Part shown: one piece after another, positions 9,308 to 53,100 of the stretch
Numbering within the stretch: position 1 is the first letter of the stretch
Layout of the letters: each line of letters opens with the position of its first letter
DNA from: Candidatus Fervidifonticultor primus
Lineage (GTDB): Bacteria; Sysuimicrobiota; Sysuimicrobiia; Sysuimicrobiales; Humicultoraceae
NCBI GenBank assembly: GCA_031459855.1
Contig: JAVKHP010000001.1
Location: 2,157,384 to 2,221,383, forward strand
Length of the DNA stretch: 64,000 bases
Direction of reading: 5' to 3'
Program-made: the position numbers and the translations under genes
The notes under the pieces: generated by a model
The model's database searches: none
What the model was told of the DNA's origin: nothing
The model's input: only the letters and a program-made list of their open reading frames with translations

Positions 9308-11238
<1,931 letters not shown>

Positions 11239-15081: not shown

Positions 15082-15516
15082 TCAGCCATGTGCCCCTGGA
15101 AGCACATCGAACCCCAACTCGACGCAGGCATTTCTGATGCGCTGGTCCAGGCTGAGGACGGTCAGCTCCGGGATCGCGGCGCGCACGGCAAGCGCGCTCG
15201 CCAGGTGCAGAGCGTCCAGCGTACGGATCGGTTCGCCCGGGAACGGACGCCGCGCGCGGTCCAGGATCTCCTCCACCACGTTGACCAGGTGCCAGCGCCG
15301 GCTGGCACGGGCCAGGACGCGGCGCCGATCGGCGACCGCCACCGGCGTCAGGTTGTCGACGACCTGGGCCCTGATGAGCGTGCGGTCGGTTTCGACCAGG
15401 GTGAGCACGGAGGTGAACACGTCCTCAGCGCCGATGAGCAGCTGCCTGACATCTTCCCCCGCGTCTTCGCCGAGCAGCCAGGCCAGCACCGCGCTCGATT
15501 CGGCGTAGCATCTCAC
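15082..15516 (-). CDS. vapC: PIN-domain toxin (VapC-like)
   Basis: GTG at 15516 overlaps the antitoxin stop (GTGA). Acidic PIN positions are recognisable (YAESSAV, LVETDR, TLDALHLASA, SLDQRI). Confidence 0.8.
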   Translation of the reverse strand: MRCYAESSAVLAWLLGEDAGEDVRQLLIGAEDVFTSVLTLVETDRTLIRAQVVDNLTPVAVADRRRVLARASRRWHLVNVVEEILDRARRPFPGEPIRTLDALHLASALAVRAAIPELTVLSLDQRIRNACVELGFDVLPGAHG

Positions 15517-15803
15517 CGCGTGCCCCGCTCGGCCTCCAGGAGTTCCCGCGACGTCGTGGAGCGGAGCAGGGGAGGCTGCGGTGGATAGACCCCGGGGATG
15601 TTGGGAGCGCCAGGTGCCAGCAGGCCACGCCGCGCCAGGTGCGCGATGGCGGCCGGCACCCGCGTGCCCGGCGTCAACCCCGGAGGATGGAGTTCTGCCA
15701 CCACCTGCCCGCGATCGGTCACCGCGATCGACCGGCCGGCGCGCACCTCTCGCACGTAGGCGCTGAGGCGGTTCTTCAACTCCCGCAGCCCAACGGTCTT
15801 CAC
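15513..15803 (-). CDS. vapB: Phd/YefM-type antitoxin
   Basis: MKTVGLRELKNRLSAYVREVRAGRSIAVTDRGQVVAEL is a textbook Phd/YefM N-terminus. 4-bp overlap with the PIN gene. Confidence 0.8.
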   Translation of the reverse strand: MKTVGLRELKNRLSAYVREVRAGRSIAVTDRGQVVAELHPPGLTPGTRVPAAIAHLARRGLLAPGAPNIPGVYPPQPPLLRSTTSRELLEAERGTR

Positions 15804-15873
15804 GGCAACAATGTAGCCTCAAGAAGCCACATTGTCCAGGTCCAGCTCGCGTGAGCGCTGCGCCGGTGCGCGC

Positions 15874-16170
15874 CTAGCGCATGCGGTGCACGCTCAGGGC
15901 GTCGGGGCCGATGAACGCAAACATCACCACCGCCAGCAGCGCCATCGGCACCACCACGGCGTAGACCAGGGTCAGCCGCTCGTAGGCCAGGTGCATGAAG
16001 TAGGCCATGATCAGGGCGGCCTTCATCAGGGCCAGCACGACCAGCGCCGTCACCAGCACGGCCCGGGGCACGCCCACCAGGACGATGGCGACCTCCAGCA
16101 GCGTGATGACCAACAGCCAGAACCAGGTGATGGCGTAGATCCGGTACCCGCGGTGATGCTCGTCGGCCAC
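15874..16170 (-). CDS. ctaF: cytochrome c oxidase subunit IV (prokaryotic COX4/CtaF family)
   Basis: 98 aa with 3 predicted TM helices; LMKAALIMAYFMHL resembles the CtaF/CyoD family core. Last gene of the cta operon. Confidence 0.72.
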   Translation of the reverse strand: MADEHHRGYRIYAITWFWLLVITLLEVAIVLVGVPRAVLVTALVVLALMKAALIMAYFMHLAYERLTLVYAVVVPMALLAVVMFAFIGPDALSVHRMR

Positions 16171-16182
16171 GGCGTCCCTCCG

Positions 16183-16797
16183 TCAGATCAGGTACAGCAG
16201 CGTGAAGATGAAGACCCAGACCAGGTCCACGAAGTGCCAGTACAGCCCGGCGATCTCCACGCTCTCGGGCTGGATCGTCCCGCGCCGCCAGCGCAGGGCG
16301 GTGAGCAGCAGGTAGATCACTCCTGCCGTCACGTGCCCGCCGTGGAACCCGGTGATGACGAAGAACGTCGCCGAGAACTGCGGGATGCCCCAGGGGTTGG
16401 TGAACAGGCGGGCCCCCTCGCCGATGAAGTGCGTCCATTCGTAGGCCTGGGCGCCCAGGAAGAACAGGCCGCCCAGGACCGTCAACAGCAGGTACCGCAG
16501 CACCCGGGGCCGGTCGCCGGCCCGGGCGGCGCCCACGGCGACCGCCATGGTGGCGCTGCTGCAGATGAGGATGAACGTCATGAGGCTGACGAGCCCGATG
16601 TTGAAGATCTCGAACTGGTGCACCCACCGGCCGAGCGCCAGGCGCACGGCGCCATACCCGGTCAGCAGGCCCGCGAACGTCAGGGTGTCGGAGATCAGGA
16701 ACAGCCACATCATGAACTTCGGCCAGCCCACCGCGAAGGGCGACTGCCCGCCGCCCCACTCGGCCGCCAGCGTGGTGCGATGCTCTCCTGCGCTCAC
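16183..16797 (-). CDS. ctaE: cytochrome c oxidase subunit III
   Basis: FFVITGFHGGHVTAGV and YWHFVDLVWVFIFTLLYL. Start trimmed to the GTG at 16797, which follows a GAGGAGGAG SD. Confidence 0.85.
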   Translation of the reverse strand: MSAGEHRTTLAAEWGGGQSPFAVGWPKFMMWLFLISDTLTFAGLLTGYGAVRLALGRWVHQFEIFNIGLVSLMTFILICSSATMAVAVGAARAGDRPRVLRYLLLTVLGGLFFLGAQAYEWTHFIGEGARLFTNPWGIPQFSATFFVITGFHGGHVTAGVIYLLLTALRWRRGTIQPESVEIAGLYWHFVDLVWVFIFTLLYLI

Positions 16798-16897
16798 GGT
16801 CTCCTCCTCGTCCGACGGCACTGGTCGTCTGCCCGGACGCTGCCGCCACGATGGCGCCCGCTCCCACGCCACCTGCCGCGGGCTGCGCCCCGCCGGT

Positions 16898-17539
16898 CTA
16901 CGTCCAGAACAGGATCACCAGCAGGTACAGCCACAGGACGTCCACGAAGTGCCAGTACACTGCAACCGTCGTCAGGGTCGCCGCCTGCGCCGTCGTCGGC
17001 ACCGCGACCCTGCCTGCGCGCCACCACGCGTAGCCCAGGGCCACGAGCCCGCCCGCCAGGTGCAGGCCGTGGGCGCCCGTCAAGAGATAGAAGAAATCGC
17101 TGTGCGGGCTGGTCGCCAGGTAGACGCCGGCAGCCACCAGCGCCCGCCACGCCATCACCTGCCCGACCAGGAACCCCGCCCCCAGCAATGCGGCCACCGC
17201 CGTCGCCCGCCGCGCCGCCGCTTTGCGGCCCCGGGGCGCCGCCCGGCGCGCGACCTCCAGCGCGGCGCTGCTGGCCAACAGCATCGCCGTGTTGACCCAG
17301 AGGATCGGCGGCATCGCCACCGGCCGCCAGTCGGCCAGGGTCCGACGGGCGAGGTACGTGCTGCTGAACGACGCGAACAGGATGGTCACGACGCCCACCA
17401 GCAGCCAGGTCGCCACGCGTGCCGGCTGCAGCGCGGGTGCGCCGTCGCCCGGACCGCGCCCGGGTCCCTCGCCGGCCGCTGGCCCGTGCGGGGGCGGACG
17501 GTCGGCGCGCGGTTTCTCCAGGGTCTGGAGGGCGCTCAC
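16898..17539 (-). CDS. second heme-copper oxidase subunit III-family protein
   Basis: YLLTGAHGLHLAGG and YWHFVDVLWLYLLVILFW. About 5 TM helices; lies in tandem with ctaE. Confidence 0.75.
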   Translation of the reverse strand: MSALQTLEKPRADRPPPHGPAAGEGPGRGPGDGAPALQPARVATWLLVGVVTILFASFSSTYLARRTLADWRPVAMPPILWVNTAMLLASSAALEVARRAAPRGRKAAARRATAVAALLGAGFLVGQVMAWRALVAAGVYLATSPHSDFFYLLTGAHGLHLAGGLVALGYAWWRAGRVAVPTTAQAATLTTVAVYWHFVDVLWLYLLVILFWT

Positions 17540-17683
17540 GGCCTATCCACCCGCTGCTGCGCGCCGACCGCGGCGCGCGGGGCTGCCGTCACGGATCCGC
17601 TGGCCCGCCGCGACGCGAGCCGACATCCCGCTGACGCTCGTGCCGACGAGAGAGGCCGTCACGGGTGATCCTCCGGTGCGCCA

Positions 17684-19483
17684 CTACGCGTGCCCGCCAT
17701 GCCCGTGGGCCGGCGCGGCGACCGCCGCGGCCGGCGTGGTCTGGGGGATGAAGTCCTCGGGGGCGCCGGGCACGCTGTAGTCGTACGCCCACCGGTGCAC
17801 CTCGGGCTCGACGGCGCCCCAGTTGCCGTGGGGTGGGGGCGACGGTGCCTGCCACTCCAGGGTCGTGGCCCGCCACGGGTTGCGCTCGGCCCGCGGACCC
17901 CAGAACAGGCTGTAGACGAAGTTGGCGATGAACAGCAGCTGTGCCAGGCCCAGCCCGAACGCGGCGATGGAGATGGCGGTGTTCAGGGGCTGGACGTCCC
18001 GCAGGCGCTCGAACAGCTGGTACGCGTAGTAGCGGCGGGTGACGCCCGCGAAGCCCAGGAAGTGCATGGGGAAGAACGTGGCGTAGATGCCGATGAACGT
18101 CAGCCAGAAGTGCAGGCGGCCCAACCGCTCGTTCAGCATCCGGCCGAACATCTTGGGGAACCAGTGGTAGACGCCTGCGAAGACGCCGAACATGGCGGCG
18201 CTGGCCATCACGAAGTGGAAGTGCGCCACCACGAAGTAGGTGTCGTGCATCTGGATGTCCACCGGCGGCTGGGCCAGGAAGACCCCGGTGAGCCCGCCCG
18301 TGACGAACAGCGAGACGAAGCCGATGGCGAAGAGCATGGCCGGGGTGAACCGGATGCGGGCCCGCCACAGCGTCGCCAGCCAGTTGAACGTCTTCACGGC
18401 CGAGGGCACGGCGATGGCCAGGGTGGTGGTCATGAAGGCCATGCCGACCAGCGGGTGCATGCCGCTGGTGTACATGTGGTGGCCCCAGACCAGGAACGAG
18501 AGGATGCCGATCGCCGCCATGGACCCCACCATGAAGGGGTAGCCGAAGATGGGCTTGCGGCTGTTGGCTGCCAGGATGTCCGAGACCATGCCCATCGGCG
18601 GCAGGATGAGCACGTAGACCTCGGGATGCCCCAGGAACCAGAACAGGTGCTGCCAGAGGATGGGGTTCCCGCCGGTGTGCGACAGCAGCTGCCCGCCCAC
18701 CACCACCTCGGGCACGAAGAAGCTGGTCCCGGCCAGCCGGTCGAACAGCAGCATGATCACCGCCGCGGTCAGCACCGGGAACGACAGCAGCATGAGCAGC
18801 GCCGTGATGAACATGGCCCAGATCGTCAGCGGCAGGCGCAGCATGGACATGCCCCGCGCCCGCAGCTGGAGCACCGTGGTGATGTAGTTCAAGCCGCCGA
18901 ACAGGAACGCCAGGATCAACACCACCAGGCTCAGCAGCCACAGCGTCTGCCCCAGGCCCGACCCCGGCGCGGCCTGCGCGACGGCCGACAGCGGCGGGTA
19001 GGCGGTCCAGCCGCTGCTCGGCGCGCCACCGGTCACGACGAACGCCGCCAGCAGCAGGACCACGGCCGGCGGGTACAGCCAGTACGAGAGGGCGTTCATG
19101 AAGGGGAACGCCATGTCCCGGGCGCCGATCTGCAGCGGGATCAGGAAGTTGCCAAATCCCCCCGACAGCGCCGTGGTCAGCACGAAGAAGATCATGATGG
19201 TGCCGTGCATGGTGACCAGCGCCAGGTAGAAGTCGGGCTTCAGCACCCCGTTCTGGAAGCCCCCGGGCATGAGGGCCTGCAGCTCCGGCCAGCGCCACCC
19301 GGGGAACCCCAGCTGCAGCCGGATCAGCATGGCCAGCACCCCGCCGATCAGCGCCATCACCATCGACGTCAGCAGGTACTGGATGCCGATGATCTTGTGG
19401 TCGAGGCTGAAGATGTACTTGCGGAAGAAGCCCAGCTCGTGCTCGACGTGCTCGGTGGTGGCCGCGGCGTGCGAAGTACTCAT
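17684..19483 (-). CDS. ctaD: cytochrome c oxidase subunit I
   Basis: Typical subunit I throughout its 599 aa (WFLGHPEVYVLILP, HHMYT, VVAHFHFV). GAGGAG SD upstream. Confidence 0.95.
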   Translation of the reverse strand: MSTSHAAATTEHVEHELGFFRKYIFSLDHKIIGIQYLLTSMVMALIGGVLAMLIRLQLGFPGWRWPELQALMPGGFQNGVLKPDFYLALVTMHGTIMIFFVLTTALSGGFGNFLIPLQIGARDMAFPFMNALSYWLYPPAVVLLLAAFVVTGGAPSSGWTAYPPLSAVAQAAPGSGLGQTLWLLSLVVLILAFLFGGLNYITTVLQLRARGMSMLRLPLTIWAMFITALLMLLSFPVLTAAVIMLLFDRLAGTSFFVPEVVVGGQLLSHTGGNPILWQHLFWFLGHPEVYVLILPPMGMVSDILAANSRKPIFGYPFMVGSMAAIGILSFLVWGHHMYTSGMHPLVGMAFMTTTLAIAVPSAVKTFNWLATLWRARIRFTPAMLFAIGFVSLFVTGGLTGVFLAQPPVDIQMHDTYFVVAHFHFVMASAAMFGVFAGVYHWFPKMFGRMLNERLGRLHFWLTFIGIYATFFPMHFLGFAGVTRRYYAYQLFERLRDVQPLNTAISIAAFGLGLAQLLFIANFVYSLFWGPRAERNPWRATTLEWQAPSPPPHGNWGAVEPEVHRWAYDYSVPGAPEDFIPQTTPAAAVAAPAHGHGGHA

Positions 19484-31315: not shown

Positions 31316-31675
31316 ATGGACGAGGTCGCTGCCGACACCTTCGTGCGGGTCGCCACCCTGGCCGAGGTGCCGCCGGGTACGGCCAGAGCGGTGGACGTGG
31401 CCGGCCGGCGGATCGCCCTGGTGAACGTCGGGGGCACCGTGTACGCCATCGACGACACCTGTACCCACGAGCGCGTGTCGCTGGCCGGTGGGCAGGTCAC
31501 CGGCGAGATCATCGTCTGCCCCAAGCACGGCTCGCGGTTCCACGTCCCGACCGGCCGGGTGCTGTCCCTGCCCGCGGTCCGGCCGGTCAGCACCTACGCG
31601 GTGAAGGTGGAGGGCGACGCCATCTGGGTGTCGCCGCAGCCCCGGCCCGGCCAGGGGATGCCGCATCGGCGGTAG
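31316..31675 (+). CDS. Rieske [2Fe-2S] ferredoxin embedded in the suf operon
   Basis: CTHERVSL...CPKHGSRF (C-x-H / C-x-x-H). The ATG lies 2 nt after the sufD stop. Confidence 0.85.
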   Translation: MDEVAADTFVRVATLAEVPPGTARAVDVAGRRIALVNVGGTVYAIDDTCTHERVSLAGGQVTGEIIVCPKHGSRFHVPTGRVLSLPAVRPVSTYAVKVEGDAIWVSPQPRPGQGMPHRR

Positions 31676-37359: not shown

Positions 37360-37539
37360 GGCTCGCTCTCCCGGCGCGCAACGGTCCTCGGGGTGGGCGT
37401 GTGCGTCCACCGACATCGCCGTACCCGACGAGGCTTCGCGCACGGTCATGCCCGCCCCTGCCGTGCAGACGCACCGCGCCGCCAGCACCGCATCGCGGAG
37501 TCCACGGTCCCACCCCGGCAGGGAGGCCGCATCCCGCGG

Positions 37540-37548
37540 TGGTATAGG
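37540..37548 (+). promoter_or_regulatory. candidate extended -10 (TGGTATAGG) upstream of qor
   Basis: TGGTATAGG at 37540-37548. Followed by a GCGCGCGC-n8-GCGCGCGC palindrome in the leader. Confidence 0.3.
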
Positions 37549-37641
37549 TGTGAGCGGTCACGGGGCCGTGCGGAGGGGCGATGCGCGCGCGGTACGCTGC
37601 GCGCGCACCAGCACGTGCCACCCTGTCATGCGAGGGAGGCC

Positions 37642-38625
37642 ATGAAGGCGATACGCGTGCACACCACCGGCGGGCCGGACGTCCTGCGCTACGAGGAGGT
37701 ACCCGATCCCCAGCCGGGCCCGGGCCAGGTGCTGGTCCGCCTGGACGCCGCGGGCGTCAACTACCTCGACATCTACCTGCGCGCCGGCCTGTACCCGGCG
37801 CCGCTGCCGTTCATCCCCGGCAGCGAGGGGGCCGGTGTCGTGGTCGCCGTGGGGCCAGACGTCGCCTCTGTAACCCCCGGCGATCGTGTGGGGTTCCTCG
37901 CCGGGCCGTGCGCCTACGCCGAGTTGGCTGCAGTCCCGGCCGCGCGCGTGGTGCGCCTGCCCGAGGGCATCGACACGGCCACCGCCGCCGCCGTCCTGCT
38001 GCAGGGGATCACCGCCCACTACCTGGTGCACGCCACGTACCCGCTCCGCGCGGGAGAGTGGGCGCTCGTCCATGCTGCCGCCGGCGGCGTGGGCCTGCTG
38101 CTGGTGCAGATGGCGAAGCGAGCGGGCGCCACGGTGATCGGCACCGTCGGGACCCAGGCCAAGGCCGCGCTGGCGCGCGAGGCCGGTGCCGACCACGTGA
38201 TCGTCTACACCGAGGAGGACTTCGAGGAGGCCACCAGGCGCCTGACCGGTGGACGCGGCGTGGACGTGGTGTACGATTCGGTGGGGAAGACGACCTTCGA
38301 GAAGGGGCTGAACGTCCTGCGGCCGCGCGGCTACATGGTGCTGTTCGGCCAGGCCAGCGGGCCCGTGCCGCCCGTCGACCCGCAGGTCCTCAACGCCAAG
38401 GGCTCGCTGTTCCTGACGCGGCCGACGCTGGCCCACTACACGGCCACCCGCCAGGAGCTCGACGAGCGCGCCACCGCCGTCTTCGAGATGATCCAGCGCG
38501 GTGAGTTACGGGTGCGCATCGAGCGCCGCGTCCCGCTGGCCGCGGCTGCCGAGGCGCACCGCGCGCTGGAGAGCCGACAGACCGCAGGCAAGCTGCTGCT
38601 GGTGCCCGACGGCGGGGCGCGGTAG
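37642..38625 (+). CDS. qor: NADPH:quinone oxidoreductase (zeta-crystallin-like MDR)
   Basis: MKAIRVHTTGGPDVLRYEEVP...PFIPGSEGAGVV...AAGGVGLLLVQ. GGGAGG SD upstream. Confidence 0.9.
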   Translation: MKAIRVHTTGGPDVLRYEEVPDPQPGPGQVLVRLDAAGVNYLDIYLRAGLYPAPLPFIPGSEGAGVVVAVGPDVASVTPGDRVGFLAGPCAYAELAAVPAARVVRLPEGIDTATAAAVLLQGITAHYLVHATYPLRAGEWALVHAAAGGVGLLLVQMAKRAGATVIGTVGTQAKAALAREAGADHVIVYTEEDFEEATRRLTGGRGVDVVYDSVGKTTFEKGLNVLRPRGYMVLFGQASGPVPPVDPQVLNAKGSLFLTRPTLAHYTATRQELDERATAVFEMIQRGELRVRIERRVPLAAAAEAHRALESRQTAGKLLLVPDGGAR

Positions 38626-38756
38626 CCTCAAGGGCGTTGGCGTGGCGACAGGGACGGTCCGGCGGTCGCGCGGCGGCATGTCGACGTGGCAGGGATGTCG
38701 TCGCGTGAACGTGGGGGATGCGTGCGGCGCGTGCAGCGCACGCCAGCGCAGGGTCT

Positions 38757-38785
38757 TTGACGTCCCGTGGAGGCAATGGTACGAT
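38757..38785 (+). promoter_or_regulatory. candidate sigmaA promoter (TTGACG-17-TACGAT, TGG extended -10) for the Rieske-nuoBDIC cluster
   Basis: TTGACG at 38757-38762 and TGGTACGAT at 38777-38785, about 38 nt upstream of the ATG at 38823. Confidence 0.5.
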
Positions 38786-38822
38786 AGTCGCGAAACGTGC
38801 ACCAACGCGCACCGGGGTGGGG

Positions 38823-39131
38823 ATGCCGCGCCTGCGAGTCGCTGCGACAGCGGCCGTGCCGGAGGGTCACGCGACGATCGTGGACGCAGCCGGGACGCGC
38901 GTGGCGCTTTTCCATCGGCCCGACGGGTGGTTTGCCGTCGAGAACGCGTGTACCCACCGCGGGGAGCCACTGGGGGAGGGCGACGTCGAGGGGCACGTGG
39001 TCACCTGTCCCTGGCACGGCGGGCAGTTCGATCTGCGCACCGGCGCGGTGGTCGCCCCGCCACCCGGGCGACCGGTACGAACGTTTCCCGTCGTGGTGGA
39101 GGGAGAGGACGTCTGGCTTGAGGTCCCGTAG
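38823..39131 (+). CDS. Rieske [2Fe-2S] ferredoxin (NirD/ferredoxin-like)
   Basis: CTHRGEPL...CPWHGGQF. 102 aa; a paralog-like counterpart of the suf-operon Rieske protein. Confidence 0.8.
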   Translation: MPRLRVAATAAVPEGHATIVDAAGTRVALFHRPDGWFAVENACTHRGEPLGEGDVEGHVVTCPWHGGQFDLRTGAVVAPPPGRPVRTFPVVVEGEDVWLEVP

Positions 39132-39140
39132 GAGGTGGGC

Positions 39141-39695
39141 ATGAGCACCCAGCCGGCGACCCCGCGACCCTCGCAGCTCGTCCCGCTGGACGTGGCGGTG
39201 GACGTGCTGGAGAGCCTGCCCGGTGGCCGCGTGATCCTCACCAAGGTGGAGTCCCTCCTCAACTGGGGGCGGGCCGCCAGCCTGTGGCCGCTGACGTTCG
39301 GCCTCGCGTGCTGCGCCATCGAGATGATGGCCGCCTTCGCGGGCCGGTTCGACCTCGACCGCATCGGCGTCATCCCCCGCGCCACGCCGCGCCAGGCCGA
39401 CCTGATGATCGTGGCCGGCCGCTGCACCATCAAGATGGCGCCCATCGTCCGGCGGCTGTGGGAGCAGATGCCGGAACCCAAGTACGTGATCTCCATGGGG
39501 TCGTGCGCCACCTGCGGCGGCCCGTTCTACTACGACAACTACTCGATCCTCAAGGGCATCGATCAGGTGGTGCCCGTCGACGTCTACGTGCCCGGCTGCC
39601 CGCCGCGGCCGGAGGCGCTGATCGAGGGCATCCTCAAGCTGCAGGAGAAGATCAAAGCCGAGCCGTTCCTGCGCCGCGCGGCGGCGCAGGCCTAA
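39141..39695 (+). CDS. nuoB: NADH-quinone oxidoreductase subunit B homolog (N2 [4Fe-4S] carrier)
   Basis: [35 protein letters not shown] before the ATG at 39141. Confidence 0.9.
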
Positions 39696-39717
39696 CGGCG
39701 CCGGACCGGGAGTCGCC

Positions 39718-40821
39718 GTGGCGCTGCGCACCGAGGAACTCATGCTCAACATGGGGCCGCAGCACCCCAGCACCCACGGGGTGCTGCGCCTGGTGGTGAC
39801 CCTCGACGGCGAGAACATCGTGGAGGTACAGCCCGACATCGGCTACCTCCACTCGTCGGTCGAGAAGATGATGGAGTACCGCACCTACCTCCAGAACGTG
39901 GCCCTCACCGACCGGGGGATGGACTACCTGAGCGCGCTGGCCAACGAGGAGGCGTTCCTGCTGGCCACAGAGCGCCTGGGCGGCATCGAGGTCCCCCCGC
40001 GGGCGCGCTGGATCCGCACGATCATGCTGGAGTTCCAGCGCCTCGCCAGCCACCTGGTCTGGCTGGGCACGTGGGCCATCGACCTCGGTGCCACCACCGT
40101 CTTCCTCTACTGTTTCCGCGAGCGCGAGCGGATCCTCGACCTGTTCGAACAGGCCACCGGAGGACGGCTCCACCACGTCTACTTCCGTCCGGGCGGCGTC
40201 TACGAGGACCTGCCGGTGGGGTGGACCGACCGGGCGCTGGCGTTCTGCGCCGAGTTCCCTCGCCACCTCCAGGAGTACCACGACCTGCTCACCGGCAACC
40301 CGATCTTCCAGGTCCGCACCCAGGGCGTGGGCGTGCTGCCCACGGAGGCGGCCATCGCCATGGGCGCGTGTGGGCCCGTGGCCCGGGCGTCCGGGGTGGC
40401 CTTCGACGTGCGCAAGGCCTTGCCGTACGAGGCCTACGGCGAGGTCGACTTCGACGTGCCGGTCTTCCCCCAGGGCGACTGCTGGGCGCGCTACCTGGTG
40501 CGCATGGAGGAGATGCGCCAGTCGGTGCGCATCATCGAGCAGGCCATCGCAAAGCTGCCGCCAGGCGAGATCCGCAGCAAGGTGCAGGTGACCGTCAAGC
40601 TCCCGCGGGGCGAGGTTTACGCCCGGACCGAGTCGCCCCGGGGCGACCTGGGCGTCTACCTGGTGAGCAACGGCGACGACACGCCCTACCGTGTGAAGAT
40701 CCGGGCCCCGTCGTTCTCGAACCTGTTCGCCCTGACGGAGATGATGCGGGGCTGGAAGGTGGCCGACGTGATCGCGATTCTCGGCAGCGTGGACATCGTG
40801 CTGTCCGACGTGGACCGGTGA
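39718..40821 (+). CDS. nuoD: NADH-quinone oxidoreductase subunit D homolog
   Basis: NMGPQHPSTHGVLRL, IGYLHSSVEK, C-terminal RAPSFSNL...SVDIVLSDVDR. No NiFe-hydrogenase CxxC pairs. Confidence 0.92.
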   Translation: MALRTEELMLNMGPQHPSTHGVLRLVVTLDGENIVEVQPDIGYLHSSVEKMMEYRTYLQNVALTDRGMDYLSALANEEAFLLATERLGGIEVPPRARWIRTIMLEFQRLASHLVWLGTWAIDLGATTVFLYCFRERERILDLFEQATGGRLHHVYFRPGGVYEDLPVGWTDRALAFCAEFPRHLQEYHDLLTGNPIFQVRTQGVGVLPTEAAIAMGACGPVARASGVAFDVRKALPYEAYGEVDFDVPVFPQGDCWARYLVRMEEMRQSVRIIEQAIAKLPPGEIRSKVQVTVKLPRGEVYARTESPRGDLGVYLVSNGDDTPYRVKIRAPSFSNLFALTEMMRGWKVADVIAILGSVDIVLSDVDR

Positions 40822-40835
40822 CCGGAGGCGCCGCG

Positions 40836-41342
40836 ATGCAGGACGTCCCCCACCGGAACGGCGCATCGTCGCTGGCGGCGCGGGCCTGGCAGGCGATCGA
40901 CGGGCTGCTGACCGGGCTCCGGGTGACGTGGCGGGCGCTGCTGGGGCCCAAGAACACGGTCATGTACCCGGTGCAGAAGGTCAACGTCGCGCCCCGCTGG
41001 CACGGGCTGCTGGCCCTGCCGGTCGATCCCGAGACGGGCAGCGACAAGTGCATCATCTGCTTCCAGTGCGAGCGGGTCTGCCCCGACCGCTGCATCCACA
41101 TCGAGGCCACCGGGCGGGGCAAGGACCGGGTGCTCACGCGCTTCGACATCGAGATGGACAAGTGCTGCTACTGCGGGCTGTGCGTGGAGGTCTGCCCCAC
41201 CGAGGCCATCGTCTTCGTGCCCCACTACGAGACCAGCACCTACAACCGCGCCAACCTGCTCTACACCCTCGACGACCTGCGGCGCGCCGCGCCCAAGGAG
41301 CCGATTGCGCGCGGCGTGGTGCGTCTGGGAGGCCGCCCGTGA
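40836..41342 (+). CDS. nuoI: NADH-quinone oxidoreductase subunit I homolog (2x[4Fe-4S])
   Basis: CIICFQCERVCP and CCYCGLCVEVCP. GGAGG SD upstream. Confidence 0.88.
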   Translation: MQDVPHRNGASSLAARAWQAIDGLLTGLRVTWRALLGPKNTVMYPVQKVNVAPRWHGLLALPVDPETGSDKCIICFQCERVCPDRCIHIEATGRGKDRVLTRFDIEMDKCCYCGLCVEVCPTEAIVFVPHYETSTYNRANLLYTLDDLRRAAPKEPIARGVVRLGGRP

Positions 41343-41956
41343 GCTGGGCGCTGGTCGACGAGCTGCAGCGCCGCTTCCCGGAGGTCGAGCCCTTCCCCCG
41401 GCCGCATCCCCCAGAAGCCGATGCGCACCCCGGGGAGGAGTCCGGGGGAACGGCGGCGCGCCCCGCACCCGCCCGCGGGCACGGCGCAGGGCAGGTGTTC
41501 ACGCACCACGTCCCGGGGGCCTGGGTGCCGGCGGGGCGGCTGGTGGAGGTCGCGCGCACCCTGCGCGACGAGGCGCCGTTCCACCTGGACTACTGCTCCT
41601 TCGTCTCGGCGGTGGACTGGCCGGCAGAGGGCGTCTTCGAGGTGACGTACCACCTGTTCTCCATGGCCCGGCGCCACGAGCTGCTGCTGAAGGTGAAGGT
41701 GCCGCGGGAGCACCCCGTGGTGCCCAGCGTGACCGGCGTCTGGCGTGGCGCCGACTGGCACGAGCGCGAGACCTACGACCTGTTCGGCATCGTCTTCGAG
41801 GGGCACCCCGACCTGCGCCGCATCATGATGACCGACGACTGGGTCGGTCATCCCCTGCGCAAGGACTACGTGTACGAGGATCCCCGGTGGCTGGTGGAGC
41901 TGGCCACCCAGCGCCAGCGCGAGATCGACGGGCTGGGCCTTGGGGAACGGGCCTGA
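41339..41956 (+). CDS. nuoC: NADH-quinone oxidoreductase subunit C homolog
   Basis: GTG at 41339 overlaps the nuoI stop (GTGA), with GGGAGG upstream. GADWHERETYDLFGIVFEGHPDLRRI is the NuoC signature region. Confidence 0.88.
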   Translation: MSWALVDELQRRFPEVEPFPRPHPPEADAHPGEESGGTAARPAPARGHGAGQVFTHHVPGAWVPAGRLVEVARTLRDEAPFHLDYCSFVSAVDWPAEGVFEVTYHLFSMARRHELLLKVKVPREHPVVPSVTGVWRGADWHERETYDLFGIVFEGHPDLRRIMMTDDWVGHPLRKDYVYEDPRWLVELATQRQREIDGLGLGERA

Positions 41957-41982
41957 CCGACCTCGTGCGCGGTGGTCGCGGC

Positions 41983-42019
41983 GCCCCGGCGGTCGGCCGG
42001 GGCGTCCGCGTCTGCGGAC
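41983..42019 (+). other. two adjacent GC hairpins between nuoC and the Mo-enzyme gene
   Basis: GCCCCGG-n7-CCGGGGC (41983-42003) and GTCCGC-gtct-GCGGAC (42004-42019). No U-tract. Confidence 0.4.
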
Positions 42020-42074
42020 GGGTGGGTGGTCGTTGCGCCGGACCGCCGGGAGGACCCGCGTGGAGGTGGCGCGG

Positions 42075-43643
42075 ATGCGACAGCCAGGCCGGACGTGGGG
42101 GGCGCTGGCCGGAGCAGGAGCTGGTGTGGTCCTGGTCTGGGCGCTGGTCGCGGGCTGGGGGACCGGCGGGGTGCCGGTGCTCGCGGGCGCGTTGTGGGAG
42201 CGTGCCCTGCGGCTGGTGCCCATGGAGGTCTTCGGGTTCCTCGTCGTCCGGTTCAAGTTCGCCGCGAAACCGGCGGGGTTTTGGGCCCTGATGCTGGGCG
42301 TGGTGGCGGCGGCCGCCGTAGCGGGCAGCGTGTGGGCCCGCAGACCCCGACCGGCGCTGGTCACGCTGGCGACCGCGTTCGCGGTGGTAGGCGCCGCGCT
42401 CGGCGTGGTGGTCTGGCGACCGGCGACGAGCCTGCTCGCGGCGCGGCTGGCCGCCGAAGGCGTGGCGGCGCCCGAGACCGCCGCGGTGCGCACCGTTGCC
42501 ACGGCGCTGGTGGCGCTGGCCGTGCTGACGGCGGCGGTGTTTGGGGGGCTGCTGGCCGCGCTGTGGCGTCGGCCGGGCGCAGCCGTGCTGCACCTGCCGG
42601 CTGGCAGCGCGGTGAGCCGGCGGCGGTTCCTGACCCGCTCCCTCACGCTGGTCGCCGCGCTAGGCGGGGCCGCTGCGGCGGCCCACTGGCTGGCTGCGCG
42701 GGCCGCGCATGCCGCCGCCGTGGCCGCAACGCTCTTTCAGCGCATCAGGGGCCTGCCGCCCGAGGTGACACCCACGGAGAAGTTCTACGTGGTCAGCAAG
42801 AACCCGCCGGGACTCGACCCGAAGCTCGACGCCTCGCGCTGGCGCCTGGAGATCACCGGGCTGGTGGCCAAGCCCGTCGTGCTCACCTACGAGCAGCTGC
42901 GCGCGCTCCCTGCGGTCGAGCGGTACCACACGCTGGAGTGCATCAGCAACGAGGTGGGTGGCGACCTGATCGGCAACGCCCGGTGGAAGGGCGTGCGCTT
43001 CCGCGACCTCATCGCGCTGGCGGGTGGGGTGAGCCCCACGGCGGTGCGCTTCGCGCTCCGGTGCGCTGACGGGTACACCGAAGGCCTCGGGACTGCCGAG
43101 GCGCTGCACCCCGACACGATGCTGGCCTACGAGATGAACGGCGCGCCGCTGCCCCCTGCCCACGGCTTTCCGGCGCGGCTGCTGGTGCCGGGGCTGTTCG
43201 GGATGAAGAACCCCAAGTGGCTGACGAAGATCGAGGCCGTCGCCACCCACTTCACCGGGTACTGGCAGGCGTCGGGGTGGAGCGACGAGGCCGTGGTCAA
43301 GACCACGTCGATGTTCCGCGTGCCCTCAGGGCGCAGCGTGGGCCGGGCGCCCGACGGCGCCGTCGAGCTCGGGGGCATCGCCTACGCGGGCGATCGCGGC
43401 ATCGCCGAGGTGGAGGTCAGCACCGACGACGGCAAGACCTGGACGAAGGCCGCGGTCAAGCCGCCGCTGGGCAAGTACACCTGGGTGCTGTGGGCCGCGC
43501 TGTGGACGCCGACCGGCCCCGGCACCTACGTCCTCAAGGTCCGGGCGCGCGACGGCACCGGCGTGCTGCAGACGGCCCAGGAGGCTCCCACGCTGCCCGA
43601 CGGGGCCAGCGGCTACCACACGATCCGAATCCGGCTGCGCTGA
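42075..43643 (+). CDS. membrane-anchored sulfite-oxidase-family molybdopterin oxidoreductase
   Basis: N-terminal ~230 aa with about 6 hydrophobic helices. C-terminal Oxidored_molyb-like core (YHTLECISNEVGG; GFPARLLVPGLFGMKNPKWL) plus an Ig-like dimerisation domain. The start may be GTG 42060 or ATG 42075; both follow SD-like boxes. Confidence 0.85.
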   Translation: MRQPGRTWGALAGAGAGVVLVWALVAGWGTGGVPVLAGALWERALRLVPMEVFGFLVVRFKFAAKPAGFWALMLGVVAAAAVAGSVWARRPRPALVTLATAFAVVGAALGVVVWRPATSLLAARLAAEGVAAPETAAVRTVATALVALAVLTAAVFGGLLAALWRRPGAAVLHLPAGSAVSRRRFLTRSLTLVAALGGAAAAAHWLAARAAHAAAVAATLFQRIRGLPPEVTPTEKFYVVSKNPPGLDPKLDASRWRLEITGLVAKPVVLTYEQLRALPAVERYHTLECISNEVGGDLIGNARWKGVRFRDLIALAGGVSPTAVRFALRCADGYTEGLGTAEALHPDTMLAYEMNGAPLPPAHGFPARLLVPGLFGMKNPKWLTKIEAVATHFTGYWQASGWSDEAVVKTTSMFRVPSGRSVGRAPDGAVELGGIAYAGDRGIAEVEVSTDDGKTWTKAAVKPPLGKYTWVLWAALWTPTGPGTYVLKVRARDGTGVLQTAQEAPTLPDGASGYHTIRIRLR

Positions 43644-43809
43644 CGGGTGCTGCTCCTGGCCAGCGACCTGCCGTCGCGATGAGCAGGAGCGCCGCACGCA
43701 CCGCGCGAACCTCTTCGGGGCTGGATGCCCCCGCGCGGGTCTCCTGTCCCGCACCGGATCCATCCTCGGGTGCCCCAAGACCGCACCTGCGCGTCCCTGG
43801 GAGGGCGGC

Positions 43810-45207
43810 GTGGCGAACTCCTACGACCTGGTGATCATCGGCGGCGGCCCCGCGGGCTACGTGGGGGCCGTGCGCGCGGCGCAGCTTGGGCTGCGCACCG
43901 CCCTGGTCGAGCGCGACAAGCTCGGCGGCATCTGCACGCACTGGGGCTGTATCCCCACCAAGGTCCTGCTGCACACCGCCGAGCTCGTCGAGCGCCTGCG
44001 CGCCGCGCAGGCGCTGGGGCTGGAGGGTGGCCCGCTGACCGTGAACTACGCGCGGCTGCAGCAGCGCAAGGCCGAGGTGGTCGAGCGGCTCCACCGCGGC
44101 GTGCAGTACCTGATGCGCAAACACCAGATCGACGTCTTCTACGGCACCGGGCGCTTCGAGCGGGCCGACCGGGTGGCAGTAGCCCTCAACGACGGCTCGG
44201 AGACCGTACTCGAGGCCGCCCATGTCCTGGTGGCCACGGGCTCGACGGCCCGCAGCGTGCCCGGCATCGCCATCGACAACAAACGCATCCTGGACAGCAG
44301 CGGCGCGCTGATGCTGGAGGCCCCGCCGCGGGCCATCGTGATCCTGGGTGCCGGTGCCGTGGGCGTGGAGTTCGCCAGCCTGTTCGCGGCCCTGGGCAGT
44401 GCGGTCACCCTGGTGGAGCTGCTGCCGACGCTGCTGCCGCTGGAGGACGAGGAGATCGGCAAGGGGCTGGAGCGCGTCTTCACCCGCAAGGGGATCACGG
44501 TGCACACGGGCACCACGGCCACGCGGGCCACGCTGCGGGACGACCGCGTGGTCGTCACCCTGGCCCGCGGGGACCAGACGGAGGAGGTCGAGGCGGACTA
44601 CCTGCTGGTGGCGGTGGGACGTGCGCCGCTGCTGGACGGCCTGCAGCTGGAGGCCGTCGGCGTGGCGGTCGAGCGCGGCGCGATCGCCGTGGACGACGAG
44701 TTCCGCACCTCGGTGCCGACGATCTACGCCGTGGGCGACTGTATCGGCCGGCCCTACCGCCTGGCCCACGTCGCCTCCGACGAGGCCATCCACGCCGTCG
44801 AGGCAATCGCGGGGGTCGCGCACGCCCCCGTCAACTACCAGGCGGTGCCGCGGCCCACGTTCTCCATCCCCCAGGTGGCGACCGTTGGGCTCTCGGAGCG
44901 GCAGGCCCGCGAGGCCGGCTACGACGTCAGGGTGGGGCGCTTCGCCTTCCAGGCCAACAGCAAGGCGGTCATCGAGGGCGAGCGCGACGGGTTCGTCAAG
45001 GTCGTGACCGACGGCCGGACCGGCGAGATCCTGGGCATCCACATGCTGGGGCCGGCGGTGACAGAACTGCTGGCGGAAGGCGTCGCCGTCAAGTATCTTG
45101 AAGGTACAGCCGTGGAGCTGGCCGGGGCGGTGCACGCGCACCCCACGCTGGCGGAGGCGCTCCGGGAGGCCGCGCTGGACGCGCTGGGCCGGGTGCTGCA
45201 CGCCTGA
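43810..45207 (+). CDS. lpdA: dihydrolipoyl dehydrogenase (E3)
   Basis: DLVIIGGGPAGY, redox disulfide GGICTHWGCIPTK, C-terminal HAHPTLAE. Confidence 0.93.
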   Translation: MANSYDLVIIGGGPAGYVGAVRAAQLGLRTALVERDKLGGICTHWGCIPTKVLLHTAELVERLRAAQALGLEGGPLTVNYARLQQRKAEVVERLHRGVQYLMRKHQIDVFYGTGRFERADRVAVALNDGSETVLEAAHVLVATGSTARSVPGIAIDNKRILDSSGALMLEAPPRAIVILGAGAVGVEFASLFAALGSAVTLVELLPTLLPLEDEEIGKGLERVFTRKGITVHTGTTATRATLRDDRVVVTLARGDQTEEVEADYLLVAVGRAPLLDGLQLEAVGVAVERGAIAVDDEFRTSVPTIYAVGDCIGRPYRLAHVASDEAIHAVEAIAGVAHAPVNYQAVPRPTFSIPQVATVGLSERQAREAGYDVRVGRFAFQANSKAVIEGERDGFVKVVTDGRTGEILGIHMLGPAVTELLAEGVAVKYLEGTAVELAGAVHAHPTLAEALREAALDALGRVLHA

Positions 45208-49747: not shown

Positions 49748-49974
49748 ACCCGGGCCTTTCTCCTGGCACCGCGGGGTGAACCGGGCCGGGTCCCGGTGGT
49801 GTAGTTCCGATGGTGCAGCAGTGAGGGGGCATTCCCGGCCGAGGACGCAGGACGCAGACGGTCAGGTTCCCGCCGGGAGTCCGGTCCGATGACCATCGGG
49901 TGCGGAGTGGGGCATGGAGCGCTGAAAAAGCGGTGAACGCGGTCTGCCAGAGGCTGCACAAGGAGGTATGCGAC

Positions 49975-50109
49975 ATGGTTAAGCTCGTGTTCGGCATGAA
50001 CGTGTCCTTGGACGGGTACGTCGACCACACGGCCTGTTCGCCAAGTCTCACGCTCTTCCGCCACTTCGTCGAGGAGGCACAGAGACAGGCGGGTAGTGTT
50101 TCAGTTTGA
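49975..50109 (+). pseudogene. N-terminal 44-codon fragment of a RibD_C / dihydrofolate-reductase-like family gene
   Basis: MVKLVFGMNVSLDGYVD... matches the family N-terminus (..v.SLDG[FY]i..) but stops after 44 codons; family members are ~170-200 aa. AGGAGG SD 8 nt upstream. Lies in a lower-GC stretch. Confidence 0.5.
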
Positions 50110-50262
50110 CCTATGTCCCCGCGTAGCCTCTCGAGGCGCGGGGGCGGAGTCTTCAGGCATGTGGCATGCGGGCAGCAGCTCCGCACGGCCTCACGACGGC
50201 ATGCACTTGATGGGCTTCGCCTGCAGGTGATGTTGCAGCCGTGAGCTGAAGGAGGTCACCTC

Positions 50263-50754
50263 ATGGCGTCCCGGGTGCAATCGAGGATATTTCCGCATCT
50301 TTGGTACTCAGGAGGAGCCGAAGAGGCAGCGAGATTTTACGTGTCCATCTTTCCCGACTCACGCGTCGATCACATAACAGTGCTTCCCAGCGAAACGCCG
50401 AGCGGCCCGCCGGGATCGGTCAAGGTGGTCGATTTCACCCTGCTCGGCCAGCGATTTCAGGCAATCAGTGCGGGCCCACATCATGACTTTAATGACGCCG
50501 TGTCGATCGTTGTCCTGTGCGAGGATCAGGAGGAGATTGACCGCTATTGGCGTGCGCTCCTCGAGGGCGGTGGGCAAGCACAGGCATGTGGATGGCTCAT
50601 CGATCGCTTCGGCCTACGATGGCAAATCGTGCCCGCCGTTCTGGATGAGATGATGCGCGACCCAGACCCGGCTCGCTTAAAGCGAGTCATCGATGCGATG
50701 TTGAAGATGGTGAAACTGGACATAGCCGCGCTTCAGCATGCGTACGCCGCGTGA
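50263..50754 (+). CDS. VOC-superfamily protein of the PhnB / 3-demethylubiquinone-9 3-methyltransferase-domain type
   Basis: IFPHLWYSGGAEEAARFYVSIFPDS...FTLLGQRFQAISAGP...CGWLIDRFGLRWQIVP. GGAGG SD upstream. About 50-55% GC. Confidence 0.8.
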   Translation: MASRVQSRIFPHLWYSGGAEEAARFYVSIFPDSRVDHITVLPSETPSGPPGSVKVVDFTLLGQRFQAISAGPHHDFNDAVSIVVLCEDQEEIDRYWRALLEGGGQAQACGWLIDRFGLRWQIVPAVLDEMMRDPDPARLKRVIDAMLKMVKLDIAALQHAYAA

Positions 50755-50778
50755 AGATCGGCTCCCCCATCGAATCCA

Positions 50779-51356
50779 GTGAGTCCTAATTTTCTGCAGG
50801 ACTGCCATCGGAACAGTCTTAGCCTCGACGGCTACATGGCGCCGGATGGCATGGACATGGCGCACTGCAGCGAACCGGCCTACAGCAACTGGGGCGTCAA
50901 GTGGGAGGTACTGATGGCATGGGCGCTCAATCAACAGTACGGGCGCGAGAAGCTGACGCTAGGTCCTGGTGGCTTCTTGATAGCCCCTTGGCCACAGATG
51001 TGCGGTATGTGCGTGAATGAGTGAGGGTCGCCCATCGGTCATGTCTCGCTCCGCGAAGCTCATCGGGTGCTCGCACGAGGACGAACCGTTGGTCGCTCCC
51101 GTTGCGGGTGTGCCGGCACAGGGACGGGCGGTACCGGATGCGCTCCGATAGGTCGTGGGTCCGTCCCGGCGGCAGCGTCATCGACAAGGTCGCCCCGACA
51201 CAAGCGTAACCTGCATGCCTTCCCTTGTTCGACGGCAAGGCCAACGTGAGGGCCGGTATCGTCAAGCGGAAGGTTTCGGCCCCGGTGATCGTCGGCATCT
51301 CGACGTGGGGGATGCTCGGGCGGGGCGATACGGTCGGGATTCCTCATCACTTCTAG
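50779..51356 (+). pseudogene. probable frameshifted remnant of a second RibD_C / DHFR-like gene
   Basis: The first frame gives SLSLDGYMAPDG... and then breaks. Only short ORFs (60-81 aa) occur in all three + frames over ~580 bp. Later frames show weak family-like strings (SHEDEPLVAPVAG; LPLFDG). By-eye call only. Confidence 0.35.
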
Positions 51357-51369
51357 GGAGAGAAGCCCT

Positions 51370-52017
51370 ATGACACAGTCTGCTCATGCGGCTCGAGTCC
51401 GGCTGAGTGCTGCCGCTCTCGCTGTCGCCGGCATCTTGTTTGTGCTGTATCCGGCGATCAGGCCCTTTTCCGATGAGGCATCCTTGCACGGTGCTGCGGC
51501 CTTCGCATCAACCGAGTGGTTGGTGGCTCACGTGCTCGCCATCGTGGCGTTCACACTGCTCCCGCTGGGCTTGCTTGGTCTTCATGGCACCGTGCGACAG
51601 GCAGTCGCGGAGCGCCACGCATATGGAGCGGTCGTGTTGAGCCTGATCGGGACGGGTCTCACCGTGCCCTTTTACGGGGCTGAGGCGTACGGCCTGTACG
51701 CGATCGGGCAAGCGGCTGTTCGTCAACAGAACGCCGCCCTGCTGACGCAGGTGGCTGTGGTACGGTCCGGTGCAGGTCTCGTCATTTTTCTTGTGGGGCT
51801 CTTGCTCCTGGCCATGGCCGCAGTCATGGCTGCCATCGCCGTCTGGAACTCCGGGCGGTATCCAAAGGGGAGCGGCATTCCCATGGCAGTCGGCGTGGGG
51901 CTATACGTTCCGCAGTTTTTCTGGACGCAGCCCTTCCGAGTGGCCCACGGCGTGTTGGTCGCCGTTGGCTGTCTTTGGATCGCCGTAGGCGTGTGGTCGC
52001 AGGGCAAGGCACCATGA
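51370..52017 (+). CDS. hypothetical integral membrane protein (~6 TM helices)
   Basis: 215 aa with repeated hydrophobic spans (AALAVAGILFVLYPAI, VAHVLAIVAFTLLPLGLLGL, GLVIFLVGLLLLAMAAVMAAIAV). GGGAGAG SD upstream. About 58% GC. Confidence 0.6.
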   Translation: MTQSAHAARVRLSAAALAVAGILFVLYPAIRPFSDEASLHGAAAFASTEWLVAHVLAIVAFTLLPLGLLGLHGTVRQAVAERHAYGAVVLSLIGTGLTVPFYGAEAYGLYAIGQAAVRQQNAALLTQVAVVRSGAGLVIFLVGLLLLAMAAVMAAIAVWNSGRYPKGSGIPMAVGVGLYVPQFFWTQPFRVAHGVLVAVGCLWIAVGVWSQGKAP

Positions 52018-52068
52018 GACGCTCTGGGTGCCCGCGCCACGCCCGCAGGCCGACCGTCGCCCGGCGCA

Positions 52069-53100
52069 TCAGCGGGGCTGGCGGGCCAGTTCCTTCTCCT
52101 TCTTCTCCATGATGGCCGAGGAGTGGCCGGGGAACACCGAGGCGTGCGGGTCGAGGTAGGTCGCGGCGTTGTTCACCGCGGTGGCCGCCTCGCCAAACCC
52201 CGTCGCGATCAACTTCAGCTTGCCCGGGAACGTGGCGATGTCGCCGGCCGCGTAGACGCCCGGCAGGTTGGTCTCCATCTTGGTGTTGACGACGATGGCG
52301 TCACCCTCCAGCTGCAGCCCCCACTGGGCGATGGGGCCCAGGTTGGAGACCAGCCCGAGGAACGCCAGCACGGCGTCCACCCGCAGCACTTCTTCCTGCC
52401 CGGTGCGGTTGTTGACGATCACGGCCTCCTCGACGTGCGGGTCGCCCCGCAGCGCCCGCAGCTCGTAGAACAGCTTGACGGTGATCGGCGACTCGAACAG
52501 CTTCCTGACGCTGTCGGCGTGGGCGCGAAAGCCATCGCGGCGGTGGATGAGCGTGATGCTCCTGGCGTAGGGGAGCAGGTTCAGCGCCCAGTCCAGGGCG
52601 GAGTCGCCGCCCCCGACCACCAGCAGGGTCTTGTCGCGGAACTCCTCCTTGCGCCGCACAGCGAAGTAGAGCCCGCGGCCCTCGTAGCGGTCGAGTTCGG
52701 GACGCCGGTAGGTCTTGGGGGTGAAGGCGCCGATGCCCGCCGTGATGATCACCACCCGACTCCGGTGCCGCCCCAGGGTGGTCCCGAGCTCGATGATCCC
52801 ATCGGGCCCCCGCTGCAGCGTGCGGACCTCCTCGTTCAGGCAGACGGTGGGTTCATACTGCATGGCCTGCTCCACGAGGTTCGCCACCAGGTCCTTCCCC
52901 AGGATCTTGGGGAAACCGGCCACGTCGTAGATGTACTTGTCCGGGTAGAGCGCGGTGATCTGGCCTCCCAGATCGGGCTGGCTGTCGATCAGCTTGGTCC
53001 GGAAGCCGCGGAACCCGGCGTAGTAGGCGGCGAAGAGGCCGGTGGGCCCGGCGCCGATGATGGTGACGTCGTAGAGTTCGTGGGCCTGCGTCTCGTCCAT
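52069..53100 (-). CDS. ferredoxin-NADP+ reductase, thioredoxin-reductase-like (YumC type)
   Basis: YDVTIIGAGPTGLFAAYYAG, VVGGGDSALDWA, GVYAAGDIATFPGKLKLIATGFGEAA. Start trimmed to MDETQAH (ATG at 53100, GGAGG SD). Confidence 0.9.
   Translation of the reverse strand: MDETQAHELYDVTIIGAGPTGLFAAYYAGFRGFRTKLIDSQPDLGGQITALYPDKYIYDVAGFPKILGKDLVANLVEQAMQYEPTVCLNEEVRTLQRGPDGIIELGTTLGRHRSRVVIITAGIGAFTPKTYRRPELDRYEGRGLYFAVRRKEEFRDKTLLVVGGGDSALDWALNLLPYARSITLIHRRDGFRAHADSVRKLFESPITVKLFYELRALRGDPHVEEAVIVNNRTGQEEVLRVDAVLAFLGLVSNLGPIAQWGLQLEGDAIVVNTKMETNLPGVYAAGDIATFPGKLKLIATGFGEAATAVNNAATYLDPHASVFPGHSSAIMEKKEKELARQPR

Follow-up and report, generated by a model that had tools for sequence, protein, structure and literature searches.

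Does a small cluster of complex I genes that lies between genes for a Rieske-type ferredoxin and a molybdoenzyme encode part of a familiar respiratory enzyme or a new electron-transfer module? This question is raised by a 64-kb stretch of the Candidatus Fervidifonticultor primus genome (the whole stretch analyzed is referred to here as the window), in which nuoB, nuoD, nuoI, and nuoC follow a Rieske gene and precede a gene for a membrane-anchored enzyme of the sulfite oxidase (SUOX) family. An earlier interpretation of this DNA, made without database searches (the sequence-only reading), proposed that the cluster was either part of a split nuo system that had become displaced or a new module that connects the Rieske protein, the molybdoenzyme, or both to the Fe-S subunits. 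The first proposal was upheld: the isolated nuoB-D-I-C cluster is found throughout the phylum, its cofactor ligands are conserved, and a second set of core complex I genes has been published. The cluster probably encodes the quinone-reducing module (Q-module) of a proton-pumping complex I, with the membrane-arm genes (nuoA, H, J, K, L, M, N) located elsewhere on the chromosome. The apparent orphan Q-module beside a molybdenum (Mo) enzyme reflects a scattering of complex I genes that is specific to the phylum; it is a known machine in an unusual gene arrangement, not a new electron-transfer module, and the value of this result is mostly corrective.

The remainder of complex I is not encoded nearby. 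A tblastn search with a complete outgroup operon found no nuoA/H/J/K/L/M/N and no nuoE/F/G in the 64-kb window. A survey of genes rich in transmembrane (TM) segments agreed, because the only such genes in the window were those for cytochrome oxidase subunits, a CtaA/B-like protein, an ABC permease, and the SUOX protein. The absence of other nuo genes described in the sequence-only reading was borne out.

The host belongs to the genus Fervidifonticultor in the phylum CSP1-3/Sysuimicrobiota. NuoD homologues with 65-99% identity to the window NuoD were labeled Armatimonadota where they carried a label, and a genome scan placed them in Candidatus Fervidifonticultor, Calidihabitans, CSP1-3, and ANGP1. 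A look-up of the exact window NuoD sequence returned no record. The closest homologues were from one metagenome-assembled genome (MAG) at 99% and from F. secundus (GCA_031459385.1) at 96%. NuoD from GCA_031459875.1 (locus L002/L011) was 89% identical, and this genome is listed as p__CSP1-3, the phylum that has been renamed Sysuimicrobiota (PMC11604079).

Whether the gene order is conserved in related genomes, a check suggested by the sequence-only reading, was evaluated with 46 CSP1-3 species-representative genomes, in which NuoD was 72-99% identical to the window NuoD, and with four further contigs. The B-D-I-C order was kept in all 46 genomes and in the four contigs, and no membrane-arm or EFG gene was found within 10 kb of the cluster in any of them. 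In the outgroups that were recovered (NuoD identity of 45-58%), the nuo genes were always in a single operon. Acidobacteriota and one Armatimonadota MAG had the operon A-B-C-D-H-I-J-K-L-M-N, and Gemmatimonadota, Betaproteobacteria, and Thermodesulfobacteriota had a 14-gene operon. Every recovered CSP1-3 genome had the isolated B-D-I-C cluster and no outgroup did, which suggests that this arrangement is ancestral to CSP1-3. The wider neighborhood of about 20 kb, from suf to lipA and including lpd-bkd-lipA, was also syntenic across CSP1-3.

Two arrangements outside this common pattern were observed. Complex I genes are also dispersed at locus L005, from a sister lineage, in which the atp operon is followed by nuoA-C-D only (L005 positions 1-11164). 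A murA gene directly precedes B-D-I-C in the CSP1-3 lineage that branches deepest among those sampled (L049 positions 1321-5567 and L050 positions 8027-12256). In Bacillus, the 11-subunit nuo operons are flanked by atp and murA (PMC3144371), a hint of an old atp-nuo-murA arrangement.

The four nuo products are complex I subunits. NuoB, NuoD, and NuoC scored above the cut-offs of their family models (Table 1). NuoI fell 0.7 bits short of the TIGR01971 cut-off of 113.05 bits; its top matches were nonetheless NuoI models. NuoI was the most divergent of the subunits, with 32-40% identity to the outgroups and scores well below all NuoI equivalog cut-offs. NuoC has an N-terminal extension of about 60 amino acids of low complexity.

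All of the cofactor motifs listed in the sequence-only reading, including the ECISN context of the Mo ligand in the SUOX protein, were present in the translations. NuoB contains the 14-residue motif noted there and GCPP; its CCxxE, GxCxxxGG, and GCPP motifs were kept in 44 of 45 CSP1-3 genomes, and both CxxCxxCxxxCP motifs of NuoI were kept in 43 of 43. NuoD carries HPSTHG near its N terminus (within QHPSTHG) and DIVLSDVDR at its C terminus, and the corresponding HPxxHG and DRxxDY motifs were present in 42 of 42 genomes. Residues H20 and Y70 of NuoD align with His38 and Tyr87, the quinone ligands of Thermus thermophilus Nqo4. Conservation of this quinone site implies a NuoH-type cavity. The conserved ligands of every cluster, together with the quinone site, argue for NuoB-D-I-C being a working enzyme under selection.

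The assignment of NuoD to complex I, rather than to a related hydrogenase, was similarly sustained. NuoD lacks the NiFe CxxC pairs at both the N terminus and the C terminus, and its scores against solved structures were highest for Nqo4 (397 bits) and NdhH (384 bits), compared with 247 bits for MBS, 179 bits for MBH, and 147 bits for FHL. A group 4 [NiFe] hydrogenase-like identity (Ech/Ehr/Mbh/Mbs/FHL) was therefore rejected, given the missing CxxC pairs and scores far below that of Nqo4.

Where, then, is the rest of the enzyme? Published KEGG orthology (KO) counts for 45 CSP1-3 MAGs, in which a few cells deviate from the common pattern, bear on this question (PMC11604079, supplementary file 2, part 29). 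Each genome has two nuoB and two nuoI genes. There are two nuoH genes or one nuoH and one ndhA, and either one nuoA and one ndhC or two nuoA genes; nuoK, nuoL, and nuoM are present at two copies or shared with ndh KOs. The remaining core subunits are split between one nuo and one ndh KO (nuoC and ndhJ, nuoD and ndhH, nuoJ and ndhG, and nuoN and ndhB), and there is about one each of nuoE, nuoF, and nuoG. These counts amount to duplicate sets of the 11 core subunits and a single N-module (nuoEFG). It follows that one of the two enzymes must lack NuoEFG. By the same arithmetic, B-D-I-C would be one of a pair of Q-modules, and there would be a second membrane arm that requires it. The sequence-only reading had considered a single other nuo locus without B/C/D/I, which would make the cluster simply part of a split operon. 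That expectation was framed for one locus; the KO table implies two further sets, of which the first has its own B/C/D/I and the second is a membrane arm that lacks them.

In the proposed mechanism, the B-D-I-C products would form one of two Q-modules in each cell and would dock on a membrane arm (NuoH/NuoA) whose genes lie at another locus. Electrons would pass through clusters N6a/N6b and then N2 before reaching quinone at the His/Tyr site of NuoD, as in canonical complex I. The Mo enzyme would be independent and is predicted to face the periplasm, and the Rieske gene is an optional first cistron in one clade.

The second B/C/D/I set in the KO table could also be taken to mean that the cluster in the window is a redundant Q-module copy that is functionless and decaying. 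However, all four open reading frames (ORFs) were intact in the 46 CSP1-3 genomes, the ligands were conserved in the 42 to 44 genomes noted above, the promoter was conserved, and codon-usage coding scores were high. Furthermore, the membrane subunits are duplicated too, which calls for a second Q-module. Decay is thus extremely improbable, and interpretation of the genes as pseudogenes was rejected on the basis of their conservation.

Several observations weigh against the assignment of the cluster to a complex I with its membrane arm encoded elsewhere. The orphan membrane arm (A-H-J-K-L-M-N without B/C/D/I) rests on the published KO counts and the arithmetic applied to them. Calls of nuoD versus ndhH KOs are borderline for this family, and the orthologue P0100 was named NdhH by the Joint Genome Institute. 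In the NuoD tree (neighbor joining, 100 bootstraps), deep nodes had bootstrap values of 13-37%, and the tree did not assign the window copy to either the EFG-less or the 14-subunit lineage. In addition, of 35 assessable CSP1-3 genomes, 33 have the SUOX gene after nuoC, and on synteny alone a specific link between the two is possible.

With respect to the NuoD phylogeny suggested in the sequence-only reading, bit scores placed NuoD with complex I over MBS, MBH, and FHL, but the deep nodes of the tree were poorly resolved. Identity to the window NuoD was 58.8% for L005, 58.0% for L056, which has an EFG-less operon, and 56.1% for T. thermophilus Nqo4, from an enzyme with 14 subunits; CSP1-3 sequences were about equally distant from all outgroups (ca. 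55-58%). These values bear on the possibility that the cluster is the Q-module of an EFG-less (11-subunit) complex I in which the Rieske protein of the Fervidifonticultor clade docks near NuoI and replaces the N-module. An EFG-less operon (L056) is among the nearest NuoD relatives at the loci fetched, as this possibility would have it, but Nqo4 of the 14-subunit enzyme is equally close. A nesting of the window NuoD with the 11-gene operons was dropped for the same reason. Together with the features of the Rieske gene discussed below, these results make such an arrangement unlikely.

The cluster can be compared with known complex I systems. T. thermophilus Nqo6/Nqo4/Nqo9/Nqo5 (PDB 2FUG/4HEA) are the same four full-length subunits as NuoB/D/I/C, with shared N2 and N6a/N6b ligands and equivalents of His38 and Tyr87, and NuoD is 56% identical to Nqo4. 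Unlike in T. thermophilus, the window genes form a four-gene (here five-gene) operon in the order B-D-I-C, apart from the membrane-arm and N-module genes, and, unlike Nqo4, the window NuoD lacks an insertion of about 30 residues. In cyanobacteria, the corresponding genes are grouped as ndhC-K-J, ndhH, and ndhA-I-G-E. This differs from the B-D-I-C grouping in the window, in which no Ndh subunits specific to oxygenic photosynthesis are involved; nevertheless, cyanobacterial and chloroplast ndh (NdhH, PDB 6HUM, the source of the 384-bit score) likewise have Q-module genes away from membrane-arm genes. Scattered complex I gene clusters occur commonly in prokaryotes, and those with two or three nuo clusters are comparable to CSP1-3 in this respect (PMC3144371). 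Enzymes with the 11 subunits NuoABCDHIJKLMN are known from, for example, Desulfitobacterium hafniense (PMC11238625) and were encoded at the Acidobacteriota/Armatimonadota loci L053-L061 and L056. Operons of this type were among the nearest NuoD relatives fetched (54-58%); theirs are whole, whereas the operon in the window is split.

The presence of the B-D-I-C operon in every recovered CSP1-3 genome should help in annotating these uncultured bacteria, which are widespread in soils and hot springs, and is useful for pairing their two complex I sets.

The window has a G+C content of about 73% and contains 58 genes according to a codon-usage gene call. Six co-directional genes make up the region of interest (Table 1; coordinates are positions in the 64-kb window, and families were assigned with Pfam and NCBIfam). 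The positions of the five genes from the Rieske gene to nuoC, their spacing, and the B-D-I-C order were as described in the sequence-only reading. The genes are separated by 9 nucleotides (nt) (Rieske-nuoB), 22 nt (nuoB-nuoD), and 14 nt (nuoD-nuoI), and nuoI and nuoC share 4 nt (GTGA). Alternative GTG starts are available for nuoB at 39135 and for nuoI at 40818.

Table 1. Positions of the operon elements and the adjoining molybdoenzyme gene in the window, with supporting matches
Feature	Position	Strand	Evidence
Sigma-70-like promoter	38757..38785	+	TTGACG-17 nt-TACGAT, extended -10 TG
Rieske-type [2Fe-2S] ferredoxin, 102 aa, first cistron	38823..39131	+	PF00355, E 2e-18, 66 bits
NuoB, carrier of Fe-S cluster N2	39141..39695	+	PF01058; PRK06411 246 bits (cut-off 116); TIGR01957 238 bits (above cut-off)
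NuoD (49-kDa subunit)	39718..40821	+	PF00346; PRK06075 496 bits (cut-off 360); TIGR01962 488 bits (cut-off 459)
NuoI, two [4Fe-4S] clusters (N6a/N6b)	40836..41342	+	TIGR01971 112.3 bits; NuoI models top
NuoC (30-kDa subunit)	41339..41956	+	PF00329, E 3e-47; TIGR01961 141 bits (cut-off 122)
G+C-rich nuoC-SUOX spacer with two hairpins	41957..42074	+	Minimum free energy -89.2 kcal/mol
SUOX-fold molybdoenzyme, 522 aa, membrane-anchored neighbor	42075..43643	+	PF00174, E 9e-46

The promoter proposed in the sequence-only reading withstood comparison. It was the sole sigma-70-like match in the 6.5 kb from 37500 to 44000, where 0.2 matches were expected from shuffled sequences, and its motif (TTGACG ... 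TGnTACGA) was kept in nine relatives in which the surrounding spacer had otherwise diverged. The promoter lies between the qor and Rieske genes. In L001, L015, and L019, which have no Rieske gene, the same motif is immediately upstream of nuoB, with the distance to nuoB unchanged. The two G+C-rich hairpins reported between nuoC and the SUOX gene are present, but their stability barely exceeds that of shuffled sequence (z = -1.96), they lack a T-tail, and no terminator call was made there. Rfam, tRNA, and terminator scans of the whole window returned nothing relevant.

The Rieske protein, a small and soluble one, has the CxH...CxxH ligands, as CTHRG and CPWHGG. It resembles HcaC/AndAb ferredoxins and scored below every equivalog cut-off (HcaC, AndAb, and NirD). 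Of 42 assessable CSP1-3 genomes, 11 have a Rieske ORF that lies 10-55 nt ahead of nuoB. Ten of these are orthologues within the Fervidifonticultor clade, and the other is a distinct Rieske gene 43 nt upstream of nuoB in L039, which belongs to a different family. Because the promoter precedes the Rieske gene where that gene is present and precedes nuoB where it is absent, the Rieske gene represents a clean gain or loss of a first cistron inside the operon. From the position and conservation of the promoter, it is predicted to be co-transcribed with nuoBDIC in the genomes that have it.

These features bear further on the possibility that the Rieske protein replaces the N-module of an EFG-less enzyme. 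Its gene lies between a conserved promoter and nuoB, only 9 nt from the latter, and was gained or lost cleanly without a change in the promoter-nuoB distance, and a distinct Rieske gene occupies a similar position in another family. However, the Rieske protein is not required, because its gene is absent from the sister species L001, L014, L015, L018, and L019, which are of the same genus and keep B-D-I-C, and the L039 gene may have arisen by local duplication of the neighboring suf-operon Rieske gene. Furthermore, the potentials of Rieske-type ferredoxins are fairly high, so that a pumping enzyme would gain little driving force from them. What donates electrons to NuoEFG-less (11-subunit) complex I enzymes is recognized as an open question (PMC3144371, PMC11238625). 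That the Rieske protein of the Fervidifonticultor clade serves as a dedicated electron input for an N-module-less complex I is quite unlikely; if it did, it would provide one concrete, genetically linked donor for an enzyme class whose donor is generally unknown. The suggestion that the cluster is a new module wired to a Rieske protein fared poorly in that the Rieske gene is an accessory, and retains a low probability in that this gene comes first in the operon, right after a conserved promoter. The Rieske protein is a plausible but dispensable redox partner of the complex I Q-module, and its predicted co-transcription with the module in some species is the lead of wider interest from this locus.

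Other genes near the operon are related to, or travel with, the Rieske gene. A second Rieske gene, at 31316-31675, is part of a suf operon (sufC-B-D-Rieske-sufS-sufU), and its position is kept across CSP1-3; the nuo-linked and suf-operon Rieske proteins are 42% identical. The qor gene (37642-38625) co-occurs with the nuo-linked Rieske gene in relatives, and both are missing in L001 and L015. In L001, SufB contains an intein with a LAGLIDADG endonuclease domain (positions 1-1474; Pfam matches on the called gene).

The downstream Mo enzyme has features expected of an exported protein. Over its C-terminal 290 residues it is SorA-like; SorA is the best solved match (2CA3_A, 1e-30), and the Mo-ligand Cys, within LECISN, lines up with the Cys of NQCSGN in SorA. 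The sole model to pass was the general Pfam domain PF00174. Scores against equivalog models were far below the cut-offs for SorA (137 versus 600), SoxC (124 versus 420), SorT (104 versus 570), and MsrP (62 versus 207), and identification of the protein as an equivalog of any of these was rejected. It shares with SorA/SorT and MsrP, which have the SUOX fold, the Mo cofactor domain, a dimerization-type domain, the Mo-ligand Cys, and a twin-arginine translocation (Tat)-type motif. Unlike those enzymes, it has an additional N-terminal domain of four TM segments, ahead of the twin-arginine motif, and no adjoining gene for a cytochrome partner.

The sequence-only reading had described about six N-terminal TM helices in this protein. 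There is an N-terminal TM domain; however, it comprises about five hydrophobic segments, of which four are TM segments and the last belongs, as its h-region, to an internal twin-arginine motif. This motif, SRRRFLTRS followed by a hydrophobic stretch, spans residues ca. 180-205, and R182 and R183 are invariant among aligned paralogues. In the alignment, both arginines coincide with the twin-arginine signals at the N termini of the paralogues P0194 and P0208, and for this reason the Mo domain is predicted to be periplasmic. P0194 and P0208 are SUOX paralogues of 355-367 aa with 71-74% identity and an ordinary N-terminal Tat signal. Because these shorter forms have that signal and lack the four-TM domain, the extension is apparently an add-on to an exported enzyme. 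The N-terminal TM domain had no family match in Pfam or NCBIfam. The homologue search for the SUOX protein listed 120 matches, down to 52% identity, which were labeled Armatimonadota or bacterium where they carried a label, and none of these matches gave a context outside the phylum.

It is conceivable that the Nuo proteins function without NuoH as a stand-alone Fe-S module that is anchored by the TM domain of the SUOX protein and links this enzyme and the Rieske protein. The frequent position of the SUOX gene after nuoC, the lack of a nearby NuoH, and a TM domain without a family assignment would fit such a module, but most of the evidence points the other way. The Tat-type motif would put the Mo domain on the side of the membrane opposite the cytoplasmic Nuo subunits. 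The four TM segments, read by eye in the window protein only, contain no His and thus no obvious heme ligand for the passage of electrons across the membrane, and the conserved quinone site of NuoD implies a NuoH-type cavity.

The gene neighborhood also argues against direct coupling. In 14 of the 33 genomes with the SUOX gene after nuoC, the two are 0.8-4.8 kb apart. In L049 and L050, murA and B-D-I-C are followed by unrelated genes, with no SUOX gene in 8.8 kb. The family of L024 has genes between nuoC and the SUOX gene; in L024 these encode a two-component system (a response regulator and a histidine kinase) and one further small Mo-domain-like ORF. Because the whole suf ... lipA block, including suf and lpd-bkd-lipA, is equally syntenic, adjacency is not evidence of coupling. 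A SUOX-anchored module is therefore most improbable, and the suggestion that the cluster wires the Mo enzyme into electron transfer was not supported. The SUOX protein is better viewed as a putatively independent enzyme that, from its predicted topology and variable gene context, is very unlikely to be wired directly to the complex I Q-module.

The TM-SUOX gene is tandemly duplicated in one CSP1-3 family (L022-L025, L027, L031, L034, L035, and L038; for example, L024 positions 12348-18806). L024 was the only tandem-SUOX locus for which genes were called, and its intervening regulatory genes suggest regulated use of the tandem Mo enzymes.

Farther downstream in the window, about 2.3 kb (49750-52069) has a G+C content of 62% versus the window value of about 73%, received no call from the codon-usage gene model, and had no Rfam or tRNA match. 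It contains ORFs of 163 aa (50263-50754), glyoxalase/PhnB-like by eye, and 215 aa (51370-52017), with multiple TM segments. This stretch may be a horizontally acquired island.

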